From Strigamia acuminata (Eukaryota), in assembly GCA_949358305.1 (NCBI GenBank), contig OX442314.1, positions 22,568,001 through 22,632,000 of the forward strand: DNA of 64,000 bases. Direction: 5' to 3'. Below the pieces are notes generated by a model. The model saw only the letters and a program-made list of their open reading frames with translations, did not search any database and was not told the origin of the DNA. Position 1 is the stretch's first letter; the number at the start of each line of letters is the position of its first letter. The position numbers and the translations under genes were made by a program. Shown piece after piece: positions 49,806 to 64,000 of the stretch.

Positions 49806-50134
49806 TTTGAAGATTCGCAAAGTCGATTTGTAACTAATTTTGACTAAAACTGTGTAAATTTACTACTTTTCTAACTTTTATGAATTCTCGAAATAAAGCA
49901 TGTCTTTTTTGGGTTAAGAACAAGTTTATTGTAATTTCTGGGGGTCACAAGTACAAATTCAGGGAAACAAAGGGTGAAACAAGATAATTTATGACACTTT
50001 TACAGCACTTCCGGTCACGCGTCATCCAATATCACTCAAAAACACCTCCTGCAGGTTGGCTTCTCTGTGCTGCGCCGTGCTCTTTCCCTCGAACTCGTGC
50101 GACCTTGTTACTTCTAACAACGCCAGTTTTCACA
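49806..50134 (-). repeat. 3' LTR
   Basis: Direct repeat of 55428-55756; no differences seen by eye. Confidence 0.95.
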
Positions 50135-53100
50135 CTGGGGCCGGAGTGGTATCACCACTCAACTCTTCCATGTCGTGAGTTTCCAGAACGCACAATCGCT
50201 GTACTGGTCGACGCAAGTTCTTTCCGACTGGTAACTTTATCTCACATGCGCGAACACGACCGTCTCGTCCACGGAATATCTCAACGACTCTTCCTATTTT
50301 CCAGGTCATCCTGGGCTGGTTTAACTCTTCTACGAGAACTACATCTCCTTGTTTAACTTCTCGTGAATTCTTATCATTTTTACGGTGAACTCTCAGCTCG
50401 GTGAGATATTCCTTTTGCCATCGCGTCCACCAATGTCCTAACTTCAGTTGACGGAGTTTCCAACGCTTCAAAATCGTGACTGATGTCGATGGCAACTGTT
50501 GAATCGTTTTTTGGCTGGGGTCTGGCAAAGTACAGCTTCGTTTTCCGACCAGAAAATGAGCTGGAGTGAGTGGGTGACTGTCTTCGTCTTCAGTGTATAC
50601 GTAGGAGAGTGGTCGCGAATTTATGCACGACTCGACTTCCGAGAGAATGGTTGTCAATTCTTCAAAATCTAGGGATGACTTTCCCAAGACCTTTTTCAAG
50701 CTGGACTTAGTTGACTTCACCATTCGCTCCCAAAAGCCACCCCACCACGGTGCACGTTCGACTATATACTGCCATTTCACGCCTCGTTCGGTCAGAAATC
50801 CTTGTATCTGTTCACCTCTCACTGCATTCAACAAAACACAAAGTTCTTTCTCTGTTCGCTTGAACGTCAGCGCATTGTCGGAGTAGATCGTGCTTGGGAC
50901 TCCTCTGCGCGCAAAAAATCGTTTCAATGCCTGAATGAATCGCTCCGTATTCATGCTTGAAACTAATTCCAAGTGCACGGCTCGAACAACCGCACACGTG
51001 AACACGACGATGTAGCATTTTTCTCCACTACGTTGGTACAATGGGCCCGCGAAGTCGACTCCAACGACTTGAAATGGCTCAGCTTGAGTGACACGATCTG
51101 GTGGCAACGATGATTCTGTCTGGCGCACGAAACGTCCTTGCACTCGCTTGCACACGAAACATTTGTGTAACACGCTTTTTACTGTCCTTCTCAGCTTTGG
51201 CATCCAAAACTTTTGACGAATTTCTGCCAAAGTCTCTCCAAGTCCACCGTGGAAAATTCTTTGATGTGCTTCTGAAACGATAAGAGTGGTTAAAATGTGA
51301 TTTGAGGGCAAAACATAAGGATTTTTCATGTTGCTGTCGATTTTTGCCCATCGCAATCTGGTATTCAATCGCATTAAACCATTTTCGTCTATATAACACG
51401 AGACTTTGTTCAAAAAAGAGTTATGAGCGAACTCCTGACGATGGCTGAGTGCTGCGAGTTCTGTTGCAAAGTTCGATTGTTGCATTACACGAAGCCAATA
51501 AAGCTCTGCTGCCGATAATTCATCCACCGTCAACGGTGCGCCATTTCTAACTTTGTCTCTGGTGTTTTTGACGAATCTTTGCACCCATCCGGTCACTCGT
51601 ACTAATCGTCTCCAGCTGCCGTATTTTGATGGCTCGTCCATCAATGGTGGCTCTGGAATCACGGCTGCTGCTGCCAAATAGTCATCTGAATCGATCTCGT
51701 CGCTATTCTCGTCTATTTTAATGTCTGGCCATTCGTTCTCGTCCTTCACAAGCCACTCGGGGCCATTCCACCACGTATTCGCTTGAATCAACGCCTCTGC
51801 ATCTATCCCTCGTGTTAGAAGGTCTGCTGGATTCTGGACTCCTGGACAGTGTCGCCAACTCGAAAAAGGTACGTGTATCTGGATTTCCTCCACTCTCCTG
51901 GCTACGAATGGAATGGCTTTCCTTTTCTCGTTCAACCAACACAAAACGATTGTCGAATCTGTCCAAGCTGTAACTTTTGCAGTGGTGAATTGTTTCAGTC
52001 TGTGCGCAATTCTGGCCAGCAGCAAAGCTCCCATCAACTCGAGTCTGGGCAACGTAATCGTCTTAATTGGTGCGATCCTGCATTTGGAAAGAATAAAAAA
52101 TACATTACAACTTCCATTTGGGTGACGCACACGATTGTACGCCACCACCCCGTACGCTAAGGGGCTTGCATCACAAAAAAGGTGGATTTCGTGATTGTTC
52201 AGGTCTGCATCCAAGCCAAAATGCCGTGGCACGCGAATATGTTCTAACAATGGCAACTGCACTTTCCATTTCTCCCATTGTTCGATAAGTTCGAGGGGGA
52301 CACGATTGTCCCACCCAATCTGCAACTTCCACAACTGCTGGAAAAACAGCTTTCCTGAAACTGTAAACGGCGAAGCAAATCCTAAAGGATCGAATATCTG
52401 TGCAACCAACTGAATAACCTGACGTTTAGTGTTCGAATCACGTTCTAAAGTTGCCCTCACATCCTCGAGTTCCAGTGATAAATCGTCTCTAACGCCGTTC
52501 CACTTTAACCCCAACACTTTTTGCTCATCCTCGAACGTTGCAGTTGGATGGTCAGCAGCAAATTGCTCTCGTAGCACTGGGGAATTGCTGTACCATTTCA
52601 CCAGCTCCATATTGGCTTCGAGCATGATGGTTGACGTCTTCTTGTAGACATCAATGGCTTCTGTTGTTGTCTTTTCACTGTTCAAAAAGTCATCAACATA
52701 AAATCTCTTTAACAATTTCATAATTAATTCGGGAAAACGATCTGCATATTGTTCGAGATGGTGTTGTATCGTTCCGTTCAAGAGATAGGGACTTGGAGAT
52801 GCTCCAAATAGGACTCTGGTTTGTCGGAGAATCTCCAACACGATTGGTCCTTCAACGTCCCATCCATCCGCGATCCACAGAAACCTCACCGCATCTCGGT
52901 CAGCTAACGCCAGCAAAATTTGATGAAACGCTTGTTTAATGTCTCCAATCAATGCCACAATGAATTGTCTGAAAAATAAAAGGGCATTGATTAATTCTGG
53001 AAGGAGATTCGGCCCTGTAAACAGGCAGTCGTTGAGAGAGCGACTCTTCTGCGCGTGCGACGAGGCGTCGTAGACTATGCGCAATTTTGTGGTGCTTCTC

Positions 53101-55328
53101 CGCTCTCGAATTACTGGTCGATGTGGGAGGTAGTAACACCCAGTCTGGTTGGCTACTTCTGGGGCCGTTTCGATTATTCCAGCGATTTTCTGGTCGTCCA
53201 GAACCTTCTTATAGCGGTGGTACAAGCCCGGATTTTGTTTAAACTTGCGAACAAGATTCCACAGTCTCTTAAGTGCAATTTGATAGTTGCTGTCCAACTC
53301 TGATTTGTCCAGCAACCAAGGCAGTCGCACCTCGTACCGCTCACCCGTCCAGTTGATGGACTCTTTAAATTTTGCTACTGCTTGATCATCTTCGTCCTGG
53401 GCGCTGGTGAGAGTTTCGTGGGGGATGCCTACTGCTTCCAACTCCCAAAAACGTTGAAGAAGGTGGTCGAGTCGGTCTTCGTACTGCACAAGATTCACGT
53501 GGGTTGCTGACTGTCTAACCGTTTCATCTTGGCTTCTGATCGCGCCGTGGATTGTCCAACCGAGAGACGTGTGAAGACACATCAATCCCTCATCTAAACG
53601 TTTTGATTCGCCTGTTACGATACGCCAAAAGTGGTCCGCTCCAATTAAAATTGCCACCTCGTCTTGCTGGGTCGACATCTGGTCGATGTTTAACGCGATC
53701 TTGTGTTTGCGCAACATCTCGCGCACGTTTGGTCCTGACTGCCTCGCGACTGAGTGAGTTATTCTTGGTACTTCAATTAATTCTAGATCAATAAATTTAT
53801 TAGTATCAGTTATATTTCGCAAAGTCACTTTTACGCGACGACGACAAACGCTTTCAGTTTTGGAATCGCCAAAACTAGAAATCTGCATGTTCTGCTTTCC
53901 CACTACTTGGGCATCGAGTTCATTCACTAGTTTCTGGCTAATAAACGATCTGTGGCTTCCGCCATCAAACATGCACTGCACCGCCTTGGTTTTACAGTTG
54001 GATTCCACATTTGTCATTAATACTTGCAAAAATAAGTCAGTGTTCTCTGCTGTAATTGCTGCTGCTGTCAACGTCGACACAAGAACGGTCTCTGGCTTGG
54101 TAGTCGGTGTCTCGCACAACAGGATATGGTGGAACCGCTCGCAGTTCACACACTTCTCTTTCTGGGGACAGCTGCGTGCCATATGTTTGCTGCCCAAACA
54201 TCTAAAACACGTTCGTTTCGTCATGCACCGCTTCAATCGATCTGGAATGTTGAGCGGACAATCTTCTTTCTTGTGCGACGCATCGTCGCAGAATACGCAA
54301 CTGGATGATGAAACGTTGGTAGTCAATGCATTGGCTGAGGCTATTTTGTCGTTACGCGTCGGCTTCTTGTAGTCGACGAACGTCTTGGCGGCTGGTTTCT
54401 CTGTCTGGTCGCTCACGGCTACGTGTTCTTCTCGTAACTCCAGTTCGGCTCTGAAAAACTCCAAAAACAGTTTCATATCGTGAGTGTTTTCTTTATTTTT
54501 GCGTGCAAAATCAAGTGCAATAACGTCAGGCACCGCATTTCGTATCAATGGACACAATACAATTCCAAACGTGGCTGTATCGATTTCTTCAGTCTCGAGA
54601 CTTCGAATATGCAATTCGCACGTGTCGTAGAGTCTACGCAACTCAACGAGGTCGCTAACTCGTTTTACTGGTTTAAGTTTCATCAAAGTCTGAATGTGAG
54701 CGTTCACGATGACTTCTTTTCGCCCAAATCGATTTTGAAGTAAAGTCACTGCAGTTTCATAGTTCTCATCGCTGATTTTGAGACCATGAACAACTGTTGC
54801 TGCAGTACCTTCGAGAACTGAGTTCAAATATACGAATTTGGCTTTTGCTGTAAGTGAACCGTTGCCGTGGACACTCAACTCGAAATTGGACCAAAACTTT
54901 GACCACTCAACAGGATTCCCGCTGAAATTCCGCATTACTAACTTTGGCAGCTTTATTGTCCCTTCGCCTGAGTTGCTCGTGACGCTGCCGCCGATTGGAA
55001 TCGCTGGGGGTATAACTGGTGCTGGTGGCCGTAAAAGTTCTTCCAATTTGACTTCAATATCGGTAAGAGAGTCGATTATCAACTCACGGAAATCTTCGTT
55101 GTCGCTTTCTTCTTTCTCCAAATCCGCACGCGTAACAATCATCGGCGATATCTTATCGTCGAGCGCTGTCAATTGTTCACTCTTTGCTAACAACTGGTTT
55201 TTTAATCGTTTCAACGCGAGGATTTCTGGAGCAACGTTGGCTAATTCGACGAGTACCGCATTACATAACCGCTTGGCTCCTTCTCTGGACGTGGCTTGTT
55301 GAGCGCGCAAACGATCAAGGGCGTCCAT
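50130..55328 (-). CDS. BEL/Pao gag-pol polyprotein (~1730 aa)
   Basis: Gag (KLPKL..FSGNP.EW), three Cys/His knuckles, protease FDGGS, RT (YYLPH, FYVDD), RNase H (HLFCDAS, PRLEL), integrase (HHCC, VDFAGP, YSDNA, WWGGFWERMV). First ATG at 55328. Confidence 0.96.
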   Translation of the reverse strand: MDALDRLRAQQATSREGAKRLCNAVLVELANVAPEILALKRLKNQLLAKSEQLTALDDKISPMIVTRADLEKEESDNEDFRELIIDSLTDIEVKLEELLRPPAPVIPPAIPIGGSVTSNSGEGTIKLPKLVMRNFSGNPVEWSKFWSNFELSVHGNGSLTAKAKFVYLNSVLEGTAATVVHGLKISDENYETAVTLLQNRFGRKEVIVNAHIQTLMKLKPVKRVSDLVELRRLYDTCELHIRSLETEEIDTATFGIVLCPLIRNAVPDVIALDFARKNKENTHDMKLFLEFFRAELELREEHVAVSDQTEKPAAKTFVDYKKPTRNDKIASANALTTNVSSSSCVFCDDASHKKEDCPLNIPDRLKRCMTKRTCFRCLGSKHMARSCPQKEKCVNCERFHHILLCETPTTKPETVLVSTLTAAAITAENTDLFLQVLMTNVESNCKTKAVQCMFDGGSHRSFISQKLVNELDAQVVGKQNMQISSFGDSKTESVCRRRVKVTLRNITDTNKFIDLELIEVPRITHSVARQSGPNVREMLRKHKIALNIDQMSTQQDEVAILIGADHFWRIVTGESKRLDEGLMCLHTSLGWTIHGAIRSQDETVRQSATHVNLVQYEDRLDHLLQRFWELEAVGIPHETLTSAQDEDDQAVAKFKESINWTGERYEVRLPWLLDKSELDSNYQIALKRLWNLVRKFKQNPGLYHRYKKVLDDQKIAGIIETAPEVANQTGCYYLPHRPVIRERRSTTKLRIVYDASSHAQKSRSLNDCLFTGPNLLPELINALLFFRQFIVALIGDIKQAFHQILLALADRDAVRFLWIADGWDVEGPIVLEILRQTRVLFGASPSPYLLNGTIQHHLEQYADRFPELIMKLLKRFYVDDFLNSEKTTTEAIDVYKKTSTIMLEANMELVKWYSNSPVLREQFAADHPTATFEDEQKVLGLKWNGVRDDLSLELEDVRATLERDSNTKRQVIQLVAQIFDPLGFASPFTVSGKLFFQQLWKLQIGWDNRVPLELIEQWEKWKVQLPLLEHIRVPRHFGLDADLNNHEIHLFCDASPLAYGVVAYNRVRHPNGSCNVFFILSKCRIAPIKTITLPRLELMGALLLARIAHRLKQFTTAKVTAWTDSTIVLCWLNEKRKAIPFVARRVEEIQIHVPFSSWRHCPGVQNPADLLTRGIDAEALIQANTWWNGPEWLVKDENEWPDIKIDENSDEIDSDDYLAAAAVIPEPPLMDEPSKYGSWRRLVRVTGWVQRFVKNTRDKVRNGAPLTVDELSAAELYWLRVMQQSNFATELAALSHRQEFAHNSFLNKVSCYIDENGLMRLNTRLRWAKIDSNMKNPYVLPSNHILTTLIVSEAHQRIFHGGLGETLAEIRQKFWMPKLRRTVKSVLHKCFVCKRVQGRFVRQTESSLPPDRVTQAEPFQVVGVDFAGPLYQRSGEKCYIVVFTCAVVRAVHLELVSSMNTERFIQALKRFFARRGVPSTIYSDNALTFKRTEKELCVLLNAVRGEQIQGFLTERGVKWQYIVERAPWWGGFWERMVKSTKSSLKKVLGKSSLDFEELTTILSEVESCINSRPLSYVYTEDEDSHPLTPAHFLVGKRSCTLPDPSQKTIQQLPSTSVTILKRWKLRQLKLGHWWTRWQKEYLTELRVHRKNDKNSREVKQGDVVLVEELNQPRMTWKIGRVVEIFRGRDGRVRACEIKLPVGKNLRRPVQRLCVLETHDMEELSGDTTPAPV

Positions 55329-55409
55329 TTTGAAATTTTCGGTCAAAATTCGGCGTGGTCGGCTTTACGATGCTGTTTTCTACTTATTTCTGTCCGGATT
55401 CACTGATTT

Positions 55410-55427
55410 TCCCGGGTTTCGGCACCA
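55410..55427 (-). other. Primer-binding site complementary to tRNA-Phe 3' end
   Basis: Minus strand TGGTGCCGAAACCCGGGA directly after the 5' LTR; matches the recalled 3' 18 nt of metazoan tRNA-Phe(GAA). Confidence 0.85.
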
Positions 55428-55756
55428 TTTGAAGATTCGCAAAGTCGATTTGTAACTAATTTTGACTAAAACTGTGTAAATTTACTACTTTTCTAACTTT
55501 TATGAATTCTCGAAATAAAGCATGTCTTTTTTGGGTTAAGAACAAGTTTATTGTAATTTCTGGGGGTCACAAGTACAAATTCAGGGAAACAAAGGGTGAA
55601 ACAAGATAATTTATGACACTTTTACAGCACTTCCGGTCACGCGTCATCCAATATCACTCAAAAACACCTCCTGCAGGTTGGCTTCTCTGTGCTGCGCCGT
55701 GCTCTTTCCCTCGAACTCGTGCGACCTTGTTACTTCTAACAACGCCAGTTTTCACA
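55428..55756 (-). repeat. 5' LTR
   Basis: Direct repeat of 49806-50134; begins TGTGAA on the element strand. Confidence 0.95.
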
Positions 55757-57291
55757 GTAGTCTTCAAAAGTCGATATTTATCTAATAATAATAATAATAC
55801 ACAGCTCATAAACACACGCCGCTCCGATTGGTAATGTAATTTTGGTTGAAAAGGTCGCAGTGGCAAGGCGAAATAGAAATATAGAATATGGCTTTTTTAT
55901 TTTTTATTTATCTAGTGGAAAAATATTTTCCAATTTCCAAAATAAAAAAAAATAAAAATAAAAAAATATATATTATTGGTACTGTAATAATAATAATTTG
56001 GCTTGATTTTTTTTTTTTTTTTTTATCCTTTTTTTCTATTTTCTAGTCGCAGTTAGTTGAAGTTCCACAGTTGCAAAATTATATTGGTTTTTGTGGTTTG
56101 AAGAAAAAAATATCTTCAAAAGCAAATAAGTATTATTAAATTTCGTCATTTTTATTCACGACCGAGCGAGTTAAACACCTCAATTTACAATTCAATTGCA
56201 CACTTCCCAAAGACAACACATAATCCAGCCTGAAATCTGCTCAAGAGTTAAAATTTGTTCCAAACTTATAGTTATTTCAAAAATTAAGACCCAAGTTACA
56301 ACTCTCTACATTATGCTGTGTTTAAATTCCATTACCATTCACTTTAAGTGCATCTAAATTGAATATAATTTAGCGCTCCAACTGTACAAGACCACAGCAT
56401 GATAGTTCATCATACAATAATCAACTTAAATGTACCTTCTCATATTCGCAATTGGAAGAGAAATGAAGCGAATCAATATTTCCATCTAAATATAAATAAT
56501 CTCAACCGTTCTATTAAAGCCATTAAAACTAACAGCACAAAAATATCATTAAATATTTACACCCATAAAATTCATAATTCGAAAAACAAACCTTTTTTTT
56601 TTATTTGTTTAAGCTCTTAAATCATTTTGTCCTAAATTTAATTAAATATTAATTTAATTTTCTCTCGAAAAGGTTATCTATTTTGCTAAAAACGTGTGCG
56701 TGCTGTGAAATTAATTAAGTAATCCCATCTAAAGTGTGTTGTACACATTCGTGGAAATAGTTTCCTACTGAGAAGAAAACTGTGGGTGAAAGAGAAAGAT
56801 TATACGTTTTTCGAGGTAAGTGGAAAACTTACCTGTTAGTACGTATTGCTAAGAGAGAAAGTCACCTCTTTTTTTATTACATCAGGCCATTTCCACGTGT
56901 AATCAAGAAGAGGTGTCTCCTAAAAACAAAAATCTCCAATTACAATTGATTTCAAAAAGATTAAAATTAAATTTTTTTAAAATAAAAATAATCAGAATTT
57001 TATACAAAAAAAAAATATTTAAAAAAAATACAAAAATCGTTTCATAGCTCACAAGAAAGTGTTAATTTATTCACTGAAACCTCTTTAAATTAATGAAAGC
57101 GGTGTTTCAAAGCTTTCCATTCCAAGAACGCCTTAATCCATATTATTGTGTTTAATTTAGATGTTTATTGTCAAACTGCAAAAAGAATTTGTTGAATGGA
57201 GTGGAAAAAAGAAAAAAAAATCTCATTCAAATATAGCTCTTAAAAAACAAATCAATTATTGATCAGGTTTTATCTCTAATAAATTCAACTA

Positions 57292-57359
57292 GGGCGGAGG
57301 CGTCGGTTGCTAAGCAACTTGGATGAAGTTGTTCGCCCGTTCAAGGTAGCCATAGCAAC
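57292..57359. promoter_or_regulatory. GC box plus two X-box-like motifs
   Basis: gggcgg at ~57292, GTTGCTAAGCAAC (57306-57318) and GTAGCCATAGCAAC (57346-57359) in a GC-richer patch. Confidence 0.45.
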
Positions 57360-59295
57360 CACTTGATGGGCAAAAGTAAAGAGTAGTTGGAAGTAATGCC
57401 CTGAGACTTCCTTCCCAACTCCCTAAACTAATTAAATAGAAGTAAAAAATCACGAGCAATTTCAATTTGCTTTTTCAATAATCATTTATTTACTTATTTT
57501 CAAAAATTGTTTAATTGACTAGAAATTTAAAGTTCGTGTTGAAAATTGCGCGATTAATTTCTCGATTCACTTTAGCAAATTGTGTAGAAAACAAATAATA
57601 CGAGACATTTACAAAGTATATAAATAACTTTTATCGGTGGAAAGAAAAAGCAATTGCTCGAGGAAAACATCACGAGTTTATGCGAAGAATACAAATATTT
57701 GTATTCACCGCATGAACTTTCGATTCACTCTGCTTTGAGCCATGCGTGGCACAAACATTGAACTGTTAAGCAACAAAACTATTTGAATGATAAACAAATG
57801 AAATAAACGATTTCAATATAAATTCAAGCATTTTTTTCGCATTTTTTTGTATTTTCCAATTCGAATTTCGATAGTTTAGGCTGATTGATTAAACAAAAAT
57901 GTGTTTTTGGTCCTAGTAAACAAGTATTAATCATTCGACAAAGCCAGCAGAACGACCAACGAAGTCAAAGTCAGGAAACCTGGACATTTTTCAGCATACT
58001 TTATCATTTGCCCCCTTGAGCTTTGCGGCGTTACACCAACAAATTGAAGGAAACGTGGCGCAAAAAATAAAACGACAATTTGAAAGTGTATTTATTGGAA
58101 TAGTTTTCTTCGCTGGATTGGTCCACGGCGCCCCAATACAAATAAAAAGATATAAAAAAAAATTGAAATTGATCGACATCTCAAGTTTGTTGACAATAAT
58201 TTAGTAAATTTCATTTCGATGAGAATAAAAAAAAATTGTTTACAAAAATTTATCTGGAACCTTGAAATGATGACGAACCAATCTCTAACAAATTATTTCC
58301 TGTCTAAGTAAGTAATCAAAAATAAAAATAAAAAATAATAATAAAAAAAAACTTTAAAAAAAAAAAAAACTTAAAAAAATTGCTTACAATATTCGGTTCT
58401 AGACATCTAATCGAAATGCACGTATTTTTCGTTAACCCGCGGAAAAAATTTCAAGTTCTAAATTTTCGCAGTGAATTCTTACCACGTGTGTCACACATTC
58501 CAAACTGTTTTATGGCAGAATAAAAATGCACTGCAAAAATAGTGTAACGCTTCTCCCTAGTGTTAAATTACACCACAAAGGTGTAATAGACATGACACTT
58601 TCATCCTTTTGCACTTTATGGTGCAAACTCTTCGGTGTAAACGTACTCCTTCGTGCAAATGAATTCCACTGCAAAGTAGCATTACTCCTTCATTGGTGTT
58701 ACCGTACATTCCACCATAGCATCATTTTTCACCATTTTTACTACATTTAAGCTCACATCCTCAACGTAAACCTTTTAACACCTATTTCGCACCACTTAAA
58801 ACCCCACAAAATTCTCACGTAATGTAACACAATGCGTTTACACCTTTTTACATCACTTATTTAAAAAAAAAATAAAACTTCCGCTTAACTAAACCTAAAC
58901 AAAGTCAACCCAACTCTTTGCTTTAACCGTCAATTGATTTTTAAGATGCACAAACACACCGCCCATTAGATCCAAATTTTAACATTTATTTTTACTAGAA
59001 CTCCACTAGAGATAACATAATCACATAACAAACTATAAACTTGGGAACTGTACACTTGAAAAAATAAAAATAGGCCTGAATGTTTCTATTTATTTTTTAT
59101 TTATTTTTTCTAAATTTATTTTTTAAATAACCACCATCACGAATACACTATCTATAAGACATGTGGTCAGTGTGAAGGCGGGATTCACAAGTTCGCCTCG
59201 CCTTTATTGGTTCTATTCCATTCAAGTGTTGCTTCAAGTATTTCTCAAGCAGAGCCTTTGATCCCATCCACTAGAAAATTCATTCACCAAACACC

Positions 59296-59385
59296 ATGTT
59301 AGTAGACAAGGAAGCACAAAGCATCTTAGTCAATTACCTCATTCTCATCGTGCTGCTTGCAATTCTTTGGATTCTATTCTTTGGT
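59296..59385 (+). CDS. Sarcolamban-like transmembrane micropeptide, coding exon A
   Basis: cacc-ATG; MLVDKEAQSILVNYLILIVLLAILWILFFG, then phase-0 donor GTAAGT. Completed by M* (60914) or V* (61996). Confidence 0.75.
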
Positions 59386-60716
59386 GTAAGTACTCTTCAC
59401 GCATGACCTTCTTTCAGCCCCTTTTTATTTCACTTTAAATAATTAAATACGAATTGATTATTAAAAGTGACAAGTGCATTTATCTTGGTCACTTTTTTCC
59501 ACTCTGTGTCGACATTAATTTCCATTTAATACATCAAATTGGCCTTATTCTGATAAAACTGGCGCCTAGAGTGCCAAACGAACTCACTAGGGCCGAGAAT
59601 TATATTAAATACAAGAGTGGAACCATAATTAACTGTTATTTTATTTTGTTTTTCAATTTTCTATAAATTATAAATGATCTGGAAAAATACCTGGAACCGA
59701 ATCCAATCATTTTATGACGATGATCGCATCACTGAACCCATTTATTCAATCATAAAAATAGCTTAACTATCAGAAAACACTCATGTTGAGCTTCAATAAC
59801 CTTTCTTATTAAAAAAATAAATGATTTTACCATCTGCTGCACAGATATAATCTTTTACTCCTAAATTTAACATGTAAAATTGCTCCAATGTTATCCCAAC
59901 AAATATTTCCAAAATCCTAACAATTTTCATTAGAATTTTTTTTTAGCACTATGATTCAAATTCTAGAAATCCTTAAAATCCCACGATTTCCACGAATGAC
60001 ATCAGTATCCACCATTTTAATTATAGAAAGTGCACCTCTAAACACTAACTGCAAACAAAGAAATTAATTCCATTAAAATCTAAATTTAAAATTAAAAAAA
60101 AAAAACCGACAACATCAACAACAACAAAGGAATGATGTAATTTGCTAAATATACGTCTCCATCACCTTGGCTTTAAATTTATAAGATCAAAGCCCAGTAA
60201 AAGTGCTTTGAACAACAAGTATTCAATTCAATTTGCTTCATCCCTTTGTCCTTGTCAAATGTCAAGTTCCTTTCGGGCTTTCAGGTGGTTAGTTATCACC
60301 TGGAAGATTGCCATTGGCCATAACCTGTCTAAAATTAGAATATTCCAACTTGGTAAAGCGCCTTTAAACGATCACACTGGCCCAAATAAACCCCCCAAGG
60401 CCCCAACAAGCAATTGTCCTCTAACGTCCAATCTCTAACCTCCAATTCTTCATTCAACTATTCACCCAAGTGCCCAAACTCAATGCCAAGTTCAATCAAG
60501 TCCAAAACAAAGACTAAAAATAGTGTTTTGGTCCAATTGGTCCCATTGGTCGTGAAAGAGTTCAGTGAATGTGCCTCCTCTGTGATTGGGCATCTAAAAA
60601 AAATTTTTTTTTTCGACCAAGAATAAATATGTGGTGTGAGATATAAATAGTTGACTTTAGTTACCATCATAAGAGATTAAAAACTCAGTGGTAGATCTCT
60701 AAAAACTTGCATCAAA

Positions 60717-60919
60717 ATGGATCAAACTGCTCAACTGATGATGGTCAATTATGCCATCTTGATCATTCTGCTGCTAATCCTCTGGGCACTCTACTTGGGG
60801 GTGAGTTCATTTAACCTTAATTTAACCTTAACTTATTTCTCTAACTATTTTGGAGGGAGGGAAAGGTATGTAATTTAATCAACATCATATGACTTTTCAT
60901 TTTGCTTCTTTAGATGTAA
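60717..60919 (+). CDS. Sarcolamban-like transmembrane micropeptide, coding exon B plus M-stop exon
   Basis: caaa-ATG; MDQTAQLMMVNYAILIILLLILWALYLG (60717-60800), donor GTGAGT, acceptor ttag|ATG TAA (60914-60919). Confidence 0.75.
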
Positions 60920-61995
60920 ACTCAACAGCCCAATTTCATTGTTTCTTTTAAAAAAAAAGCAAAACACTTGAGAATATCAGTAAGTATTTAATCTTCAACT
61001 GCCCCTCTTGTGTGCCCCCCACCTGCCACCAAAAAAGTCCTATTCCTCGATCAGGAACACAAAGACTTTTCCTGATTTATTTTTTTATTTATTTTTCAGT
61101 CATGTGACTAATTGTTCAAATGCATGACCTGTGTTACTTCGTTTTACTAAATAATAAAAAAAAATATTTTATTTAAAAATTTCAAAAAAAATCGAAAAAT
61201 TCAAATTTTTCAATTTATTTTAGCGAAAAAGTGATTCTTTAAGATGTTATTTTTTTTTATCATAATGGCAGACGAAGAACCGTTGGCTATATTTGGCTTT
61301 CATTCCAGTACAAATCTGAATCTATTTTAAACGACCCACTCTGCATTTTTTTTTATCGATCAAAACTTCGCTTTTCTGTATTGCGATATAATAATTACAC
61401 TTTGTTGGTGCTGTCTTGCCGATAGATAATTTATTTAAGAGCATCTTTTTCCAATCGAATCCACATAAATTTTAAAACGTCCTATAAATAGCAAATTTAA
61501 TAATCCTGACATTTAAACTCAAATTCTTCCATACCAAGTTCAGCTTGTACTTCCTCCATTTCATCCCTCCCCGCTGAATAATTCAGCAGAAACGTGTCAT
61601 TTTTAAATTGCAAAACCAAGTTGCTTTGTAAGATGCAAAAATCTAATTAGCTGCAAGTTGCAAGCACAACACAGCTTTAAATGGCAAAATTTATTCCACC
61701 AAATTGACTTATTAATAAATCCGAAATAATCAATTCAAAACATCTGAACCAAATAGTTTTTCCACAAACTTGATTTCTCTGTGTAATTAAGCAATAATTA
61801 CCCCAAGAAACATTTGTCTTTTCCTTTCTAATTAAGTTTTCATGGGTTAATTACAAACAAAAATAAAAATAATAAGTTCTTCTAATAATTCCTGCCAGTA
61901 CCAGTTGGTGAATGGATAATCCTTTGTTTTCCACTTCATCCGCTCCAATGTAATCAGAAAAGAAAAATACTAATCTCAACCTTCAACTTTTGCAG

Positions 61996-62440
61996 GTGTA
62001 AATCACATCATTGCATCATCAACCACCACAATGGAGAAGCCTAAAAATTATAGATTTACACGACTAGAAAAATAATTAACTTCGTTTCCAAGCAGGTAAA
62101 TTGTCAATTAAAAGTTTAAAACCTCATTTACATTTGGCCAAAATTAACAAACAAATCAAATGGTATTTTAAATTAAATTTTCTGTCTTATTTTTAAAACA
62201 GATTCAAATATCACGTGATTCAACCATGCAGTCTTCCAACAACACCAGGCTATTTTAGGTCTCTGATAATAATTTCATGTCTTACAAAGCAAGAATCGAT
62301 GTAGAAAAGAAGAAAAAAACCTCCAAACAAAATTATACTTAATTATTTAGAATTATTTAATGTAAATATGTCTCATAGTTCCTTCTCTTATGTGATGTAC
62401 AAGTCATTGCAAAACATTCACATTACTATTTAAATAAATA
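61996..62440 (+). other. Shared terminal / 3' UTR exons of the micropeptide locus
   Basis: ttttgcag|GTG TAA at 61996, donor cag|gtaaat at 62096, acceptor at 62201, AATAAA at ~62433. Confidence 0.55.
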
Positions 62441-64000
62441 TGAAATATTTTTACCTCTGGCCTTATTTTTCGTCCGCAGGTTGAATAACATCGACAAAAC
62501 TCCCCCTTCTTTATCGATTTTTAAAAAAATTTGTAGCAACAAATGGTGTTATCGAACTTGGGTTTAATTTTTTTTATTGGAATATTTCCAGCATTTCTGT
62601 CAATAACAAGTAAGGTAAATAAAGAGCTCGATGTATGTCTCCATAGATTCTCACTTGGCCATTCAATAGCCAATCAAAATGTCAGTTAAATTAAACTTTT
62701 CCTTCTGCGCAAGTGCGCAAACATGTGTACGGTGCATCGATGTTTTCAAGTTGGCTGCAATACGTTTTGAATGTAAAAGTGTGGTCGAGAAAAGAAAAGA
62801 AAGGCACAGCCAAAAGAATCACATGCTGCAGCTCCCGGATGATTTATAAAAATGAAACTCATGGTTACACATCGCTGGGCGCCAACAGAATTTTTCCACA
62901 ACAAGATTGTTTTCTCCCTTTTATTTGATTTTTTTTGGCTTACTCGTCGTCTCATTTTAATGGTTTGTCAACAGGTATAAAGCTGAGCCCCACACGAAAT
63001 ATACGTCAAATTTCTGCATAAAAATGAGCGAGGTAAGATGGAAATAAAGCCTGTGCTATTTGCGCTACTTTTATGTCAGATAGTAAAAACAAAATGGGAG
63101 AATACGAATAATTCTATTGTGCGAATTTGTAACGATACGCATCGTTGCGTGTTATTTATGTTAGAACACGCAATTTGCAGTGCAAAACTGCACATTCTAC
63201 GTACAATGACCACAACGAATAATATAACCTCTAGCCAAGGTCGAGTGGCAAACTCCAAGCTTATTTTGTAAGGTTTAGTCATCAGTTTGCGGTCTGGCTT
63301 TAGCACCGTTAGGAGATGGTCTGACGTCACAATGTGCTTGTAGTAGTAAATTCATGTCGTCGTGCACAGTATTTAACTGTAGAAATGCTTATAAAATTCA
63401 AAAAAATCAAAAATTATCATTTTTTACTTTTCCAAAAATTTCAATTATTAAGAGAAATGGTTAACAGCTCGTAATCTACACTTGCCCCACCAATAATTGA
63501 CCCTTGCTCCTTTGAACAATTTTTCCACACTGAACTCCTATGCTGGACAAAAGAATAAGTTCTCGGAACGAAACCGGACTCGTTCGTAAGTGGAGAACTT
63601 GTTGTTTTATCTGTGACTTCTCGCAACCCCATCTGTCGTCGTCCAACGAAAACTGGCCACCTTTGATGGGATTGTAACAAAGCACAAGAAAACTAAATAA
63701 ATGAGCTCACCGAAAACAAATAATATCAGTCCTCATATCTCATTTCGCTCTCGTTCGTTTATCATGATTTCCCGTTCGCTATTATCCTGATTTATGGTCA
63801 CACTCACACCGCCTCTGTGTTGCCCGCCATCTTTTGCAGGGAATGTCTATTGTTTTTATTATTCAATTTTTATTCATTTTTATTTTTATTCATTTTTATT
63901 AATTCTATAAATGACATTTGGATTTTCATTGCATCATTTGTAACATTTCAGAGGAAAAACAACAAGCCAAAAATACTTGCCGGAAATTAAAAACGAGCCT

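Follow-up and report, generated by a model that had tools for sequence, protein, structure and literature searches.

Sarcolambans and other regulins are peptides of about 28 to 52 residues with one C-terminal transmembrane helix that act on SERCA. In the literature consulted (PMC13240139, PMC11475943, PMC4612599, PMC13434451, PMC4807881, PMC11674832, 10.1101/667022), the fly sarcolamban peptides are given as 28 to 29 residues long and the fly gene is described as bicistronic. According to 10.1101/2020.07.19.211243, SERCA was inhibited, with lowered calcium affinity, by three sarcolambans from crustaceans and insects, and the water flea sarcolamban raised Vmax. That text places Lys9 of bumble bee sarcolamban at the position of phospholamban Gln29 and sarcolipin Arg6, Trp26 at that of sarcolipin Trp23, and Tyr29 at that of phospholamban Val49 and sarcolipin Val26. 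It describes a luminal-end motif in the tested sarcolambans, Trp-Leu-Leu and then Tyr or Cys, the Tyr being tied to strong inhibition.

Regulins vary widely in effect, as described in PMC8396278, where the contact of phospholamban Asn34 or sarcolipin Asn11 with Thr805 is given as required for inhibition; loss of this Asn in phospholamban abolishes inhibition, the activator DWORF has a helix-breaking Pro at this place, and sarcolipin needs its luminal five-residue tail. The fly peptides are controlled via neprilysin cleavage of the luminal end, as stated in PMC9338278. Our literature searches found no report of a myriapod sarcolamban; the taxon lists of Magny et al. 2013 (Science) and of the review by Baena-Angulo et al. 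2025 may include myriapod or chelicerate members. Here we describe two short exons, A and B, in a stretch of 64,000 nucleotides from the centipede Strigamia acuminata, referred to below as the window.

Results

The exon pair

Exons A and B lie on the same strand with their ATGs 1,421 bp apart (Table 1). The residues that we use below as landmarks are Gln8, Asn13, Tyr14, Trp25, Phe28 and Gly30 in exon A, and Gln6, Asn11, Tyr12, Trp23, Tyr26 and Gly28 in exon B. The maximum hydropathy over 19 residues is 2.97 for A and 2.66 for B, and both exons have the size and single C-terminal helix of sarcolambans and regulins. The original prediction described the two exons as paralogues about 1.4 kb apart, and their frames, places and translations proved to be as it stated. 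In an ungapped comparison, 16 of 28 residues are identical. The local alignment score of 86 is higher than any obtained with 20,000 shuffles of B (maximum, 55) or with 20,000 shuffles restricted to the helix (maximum, 73). The prediction had also pointed to synonymous differences between the copies, and indeed 10 of the 16 identical residues are encoded by synonymous codons. The nucleotide differences are in excess at third codon positions (10, 6 and 19 at positions 1, 2 and 3), and pS is 0.67 and pN 0.32 over the last 26 codons. No third copy was present among the 3,428 six-frame fragments of the window, the next best having an E value of 0.21.

A good start context and a phase-0 donor after the same Gly, two further claims of the prediction, were likewise found. 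An adenine is present at -3 for both ATGs, and exon B alone also has a guanine at +4. The donors directly following the Gly codon are GTAAGT at 59386 in exon A and GTGAGT at 60801 in exon B, with a total of 41 GTRAGT sequences on the + strand of the window. Two sequencing runs contain no mismatching letter within either exon; they cover the introns and behave like DNA, and neither contains splice joints at the predicted sites. Judging from the sequence, we consider exons A and B to be real, conserved micropeptide exons.

Table 1 Features of the exon pair and its neighbourhood (positions in the window)
Feature	Position	Strand	Description
Stac-like F-BAR/C1/SH3 gene	24217-45141	+	Nearest upstream host gene found; Strigamia maritima protein maps exon by exon
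BEL/Pao LTR retrotransposon	49806-55727	-	Open 1744-codon frame with Pao peptidase, RT and integrase domains
Coding exon A	59296-59385	+	30 codons, ATG start; one hydrophobic helix
Candidate last exon of A (start)	59845-59850	+	Ile then stop; acceptor ends 59844; intron 459 nt
MEF2-consensus cluster, six sites	59861, 60017, 60080, 60086, 60329, 60514 (span 59861-60523)	unstranded	Between exons A and B
TATA-like hexamer, candidate promoter	60642-60647	+	Read from sequence; 75 nt before ATG of B
Coding exon B	60717-60800	+	28 codons, ATG start; one hydrophobic helix
Likely next exon of B	60914-60979	+	Met, stop, 3' UTR; strong acceptor 60913, donor 60980; intron 113 nt
Additional strict MEF2-consensus site	61482-61491	unstranded	Consensus match
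Third candidate exon	61996-62095	+	Val then stop; acceptor 61995, donor 62096

Relatives and selection

A profile built from A and B retrieved 28 proteins at E <= 0.001 among 1.84 billion, and an alignment of 18 sequences gave 35 matches among 7,990 candidates scored, many of them already in the 28. The named relatives are hypothetical proteins from spiders (Stegodyphus, Trichonephila, Caerostris), the tardigrade Hypsibius and the crab Portunus, and none is labelled sarcolamban by its source. In the 43 distinct cores, positions 20 and 21 are always Leu; 42 cores have Tyr14 and 40 have Trp25, whereas position 13 is split between Asn (31 cores) and Thr (12 cores). The Asn-Tyr pair is therefore not peculiar to this centipede.

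Related exons were also present at three genomic loci. The first (L001) harbors two tandem copies 883 bp apart next to an OLA1 gene whose best named match is that of the eriophyoid mite Aceria (81% identity), with other mites and insects reaching at most 78%; L001 is for this reason probably a mite locus. A tandem copy is thus found in one of the three loci, with none in 20 kb of L002 and with L003 judged over only 5.3 kb. Comparison of dN/dS among relatives, proposed as a check in the original prediction, gave a lower pN than pS for each of 15 exon pairs, as is typical of purifying selection; A and the L003 exon have 23 of 26 residues in common, with a pN of 0.08 and a pS of 0.68. In a tree of 43 rows and 26 columns, for which bootstrap was unsettled, B groups with the downstream mite-type copies (97/87), and A is left apart from the upstream mite copy, which is weak evidence. 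Both A and B fall outside the clade of 12 Thr-Tyr sequences.

Several relatives have features of their own. P0011, P0015, P0018 and P0027 carry an N-terminal extension with Arg-Arg-x-Ser and have a phospholamban-like length, and three of these four also display a weak Pfam Phospholamban match. In P0019 (Hypsibius exemplaris OQV23198.1), the C-terminal 32 residues correspond to an Asn-Tyr-type regulin (E 1e-5) without a Pfam Sarcolamban match, and this protein is likely a mis-extended gene model.

Family assignment

The single Pfam match of exon A is Sarcolamban (PF21898), with an E value of 0.038 and 14.2 bits against a gathering cut-off, the threshold of the model, of 27 bits. Exon B has no Sarcolamban match, and neither exon matches Sarcolipin. 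The original prediction had named a search with Scl, SLN and PLN models as a check; here Sarcolamban is the only match of A, at a score below the cut-off, B is not matched, and two relatives pass the cut-off. The cut-off is also failed by 42 of the 44 relatives and locus exons scanned. Pfam matches among the 28 relatives were to Sarcolamban (17), Phospholamban (4) and Sarcolipin (2), and 10 of 16 further sequences matched Sarcolamban. As controls we took the 30 stretches of highest hydrophobicity elsewhere in the window, equal to the exons in this respect, and none of them matched any of the three models.

The two sequences above the cut-off are P0016 (27.7 bits), which is retrieved by the A and B profile at E 5e-6, and P0170 (28.5 bits), one of the 16 further sequences. 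When a profile was made solely from the 12 Thr-Tyr relatives, among them both of these sequences, it detected the exons at E 2e-9 and 1e-8, and A and B were the only hits up to E 1 among the 3,428 window fragments. Profiles from which exon B had been left out still recovered it, at E 1e-8 and 2e-11. P0016, P0170 and the Thr-Tyr profile together link the pair by transitive homology to sarcolambans that pass the cut-off. Against PDB, the two-sequence profile gave no match. The family profile gave only 4 matches up to E 10 among 177,635 sequences, all to phospholamban (E 0.4 to 8); none is significant by E value, and the alignment, with a one-residue gap, places the Asn of the peptides on Asn34. 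With the Sarcolamban matches and the Thr-Tyr profile, these matches support, at the level of the family, the earlier reading of the exons as encoding SERCA-regulator-type micropeptides.

Last exons and gene structure

Exons A and B likely encode incomplete peptides, with a further exon supplying the last codon and the stop. Most relatives without tails resembling intron read-through stop one to a few residues past the same Gly. In 29 of 50 relatives, the GT of a donor appears to be read through, giving Val-Ser, Val-Lys, Val-Ile or Val-Arg past the Gly30 position; these all belong to the 38 Asn-type relatives, many of which are near-duplicates, and none to the 12 Thr-type relatives. Among the matches listed, GT directly follows the exon in 4 of 4 exons of the three related loci.

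The sequence RTR-TAA follows a pyrimidine-rich yAG at 3 of 281 sites on the + strand, all closely behind the exons (59844, 60913 and 61995), a post hoc count of a pattern picked after it had been noticed. Acceptors followed by any codon and then any stop number 3 of 17 in the region versus 33 of 540 window-wide (p approximately 0.08, not significant alone). Behind the downstream copy in L001, an acceptor with a branch-like CTAAC precedes Met-stop 144 nt behind the donor, and this is the only yAG-ATG-stop among 932 yAG sites of that locus. In L002, an acceptor followed by Ile-stop lies 447 nt behind the donor. No one-codon last exon was found for L003 or for the upstream copy of L001 in the stretch scanned. 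The products would likely be 31 residues (A) and 29 residues (B) in length. The Val-stop exon at 61996 is a candidate alternative or shared last coding exon; as no third coding exon was found in the window, it would lack a coding exon to itself. The pair could represent two separate genes or alternative exons of a single gene.

Unspliced translations of A and B have no entry in the protein collection searched. At L001:6014-6025 and L002:10085-10096, the GT behind the Gly reads Val-Ile-Val-stop in both loci, with synonymous differences between them. This raises the possibility that an unspliced form in these loci may be kept under selection alongside the spliced one. Separately, the 214 nt at 60807-61020, comprising the B intron, the Met-stop exon and its donor, have a second genomic copy with different flanks in both runs. 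A 5-nt insertion and a few substitutions distinguish it, read depth over the shared core is approximately doubled, and the copy is absent from the window. It could be a divergent haplotype, a short repeat or the duplicated last exon of another gene.

Residue register

The spacing of Gln, Asn, Trp and the aromatic residue in A (8, 13, 25, 28) and in B (6, 11, 23, 26) matches the numbering of known regulins. The polar residue at the position of phospholamban Asn34 and sarcolipin Asn11 is present as Asn13 in A and Asn11 in B. The Trp-Leu-Leu region reads Trp-Ile-Leu in A and Trp-Ala-Leu in B, so that Trp and the second Leu are kept in both. Three residues after Trp, B has Tyr, as do 40 of the 43 cores, and A has Phe. 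No PKA-type motif is present in exons A and B or in the + strand frames upstream (55400-59295). An N-terminal extension with a PKA site, provided by an upstream exon, was sought and none was found, although an in-frame acceptor at 59274 would permit one.

Regulatory signals and neighbourhood

Matches to YTAWWWWTAR, the MEF2 consensus as given in 10.1101/2023.06.28.546941, are concentrated between the two exons. The kilobase before B (59717-60717) harbors six, with 0.37 expected, and none of 2,000 dinucleotide shuffles reached this number. Of the 78 bins of the window, its bin has the highest density, and no other bin contains two strict sites. Three of the 9 strict sites in the window lie at 60329-61491. 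No MEF2 site was found in the kilobase before A or before the four exons of L001 to L003. The cluster is likely a muscle enhancer and offers indirect support for muscle expression. It begins 565 bp behind the ATG of A and could serve both exons.

One exon of the Stac-like gene upstream displays 97% identity to the Strigamia maritima protein, 81% to a millipede protein, and at most 75% to those of named spiders, horseshoe crab and insects, pointing to a geophilomorph centipede as the likely host. Stac proteins have a role in muscle excitation-contraction coupling. The neighbours of L001 and L002 are different, and adjacency of the Stac-like gene may therefore be a matter of chance. The possibility that A and B are alternative tails of this gene was rejected, as its protein is complete by 45141, a retrotransposon lies in between, and most relatives have a Met of their own as start, at a similar position. 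This BEL/Pao element is located 3.6 kb upstream of exon A. Its 300-nt LTRs are identical, and the insertion is accordingly very recent. Positions 1-22500 of the window are densely occupied by ordinary genes with short introns, including those for an ABC transporter, a methyltransferase (PF02390), a PH and TBC domain protein, a mannosyltransferase (PF03901) and RFWD3. No Rfam family was detected in 55500-64000.

Discussion

Our results indicate that exons A and B are very probably new members of the sarcolamban family and encode SERCA-inhibiting centipede sarcolambans, the SERCA function being deduced from membership in the family. In the mechanism we propose, MEF2 would drive transcription in muscle and heart, and exons A and B would be spliced to a last exon adding Ile, Met or Val and a stop, so that the peptides would reach 31 and 29 residues. 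These would insert tail first, with a cytosolic N-terminus and a single helix in the muscle sarcoplasmic reticulum. The helix would occupy the SERCA M2/M6/M9 groove with Asn13 or Asn11 set against Thr805 in place of phospholamban Asn34, and the Trp and the aromatic residue three places on would pack at the luminal base, resulting in a lower apparent calcium affinity and slower relaxation. As neither exon has a PKA-type motif, control would be exerted through amount, splicing and turnover rather than through phospholamban-like phosphorylation. Since neprilysin acts on the luminal end of the fly peptides, we speculate that the choice of last codon is potentially relevant.

The peptides could be true regulins of which one or both act otherwise: as SERCA subunits that activate the pump or do not inhibit it, in tissues other than muscle, or on a different pump. 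The wide variation in effect among regulins and the increase in Vmax by water flea sarcolamban, as given in PMC8396278 and 10.1101/2020.07.19.211243, would agree with this, as would the position of A and B outside the clade with both cut-off passers and, for A, the absence of an upstream MEF2 site and of the Tyr tied to strong inhibition. Both peptides nevertheless retain the inhibitory Asn and, unlike DWORF, have no helix-breaking Pro there, and the MEF2 cluster behind the ATG of A could serve both, so that we consider a different action unlikely.

Still less probable is a separate panarthropod family of single-pass peptides whose likeness to sarcolamban and phospholamban reflects a convergent hydrophobic bias. 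Every match of A and B to a named family is weak, and helices of 30 residues yield spurious matches, with other membrane families appearing at E 0.01 to 1 among the relatives. Yet the relatives form a graded series that reaches sequences above the Sarcolamban cut-off, three regulin models recur among them while none of the 30 controls matches any, and the polar anchors are in register. To the idea that the exons are decayed or never-expressed relics we give next to no credence in view of the intact starts and donors, the excess of pS over pN between A and L003, the agreement of two runs across both exons, and the MEF2 cluster. Inhibitory centipede sarcolambans are thus the reading we prefer.

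The one-codon last exons that are likely present at 59845, 60914 and 61996, the MEF2-type cluster and the tandem pair in a probable mite are new in this analysis. The myriapod pair, together with unlabelled spider, crab and tardigrade proteins and the probable mite locus, fills a gap in the range of sarcolambans. Asn-type sequences are intermediate between Pfam-type sarcolambans and vertebrate phospholamban and sarcolipin, and so support one ancient family. Gene callers miss such genes because the last codon is on another exon. The Asn-type sequences are naturally occurring variants useful for studying how SERCA structure relates to function, and they yield an improved profile with which to search for such genes. 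The accepted view of how the sarcolamban system works is unchanged.

A wider reading is that the pair retains the arrangement of the ancestral arthropod, in which two Asn-type regulins, common to chelicerates as well, stand in tandem. Their roles would be split, as in vertebrate regulins, between B, a muscle peptide driven by MEF2, and A, which evolves more slowly under other control. The Ile, Met and Val last exons would then set the luminal end for anchoring and neprilysin turnover, and Thr at the Asn position would be one later change. Its basis is a single locus, probably of a mite, together with a tree of weak support and the one-sided MEF2 cluster, and this reading seems doubtful to us.

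In comparison with sarcolamban, exons A and B are below the Pfam cut-off, have Gln where bumble bee sarcolamban has Lys9, have Asn-Tyr in contrast to the Thr-Tyr of relatives that pass the cut-off, and have their last codon split off by a phase-0 intron. Whereas the fly gene is described as bicistronic, A and B each seem, by prediction, to have their own last exon. They resemble sarcolamban in size class, in having two paralogous small frames at one locus, in their single hydrophobic helix, and in the Trp with an aromatic residue three places later; to this are added the weak Pfam match and the relatives that grade up to sequences passing the cut-off. Phospholamban (PF04272; PDB 4Y3U, 4KYT, 1ZLL, 2KYV) differs in having a cytosolic regulatory helix and a PKA-type motif, neither of which A and B have, and is alike in that the alignment sets their Gln opposite Gln29 and their Asn opposite Asn34. 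Unlike sarcolipin (PF05366), the peptides do not have a five-residue luminal tail, their predicted tail ending two or three residues past the helix. They share its length class, and in B the polar residue, the Asn, the Trp and the residue three places after it stand at 6, 11, 23 and 26, exactly as in sarcolipin.
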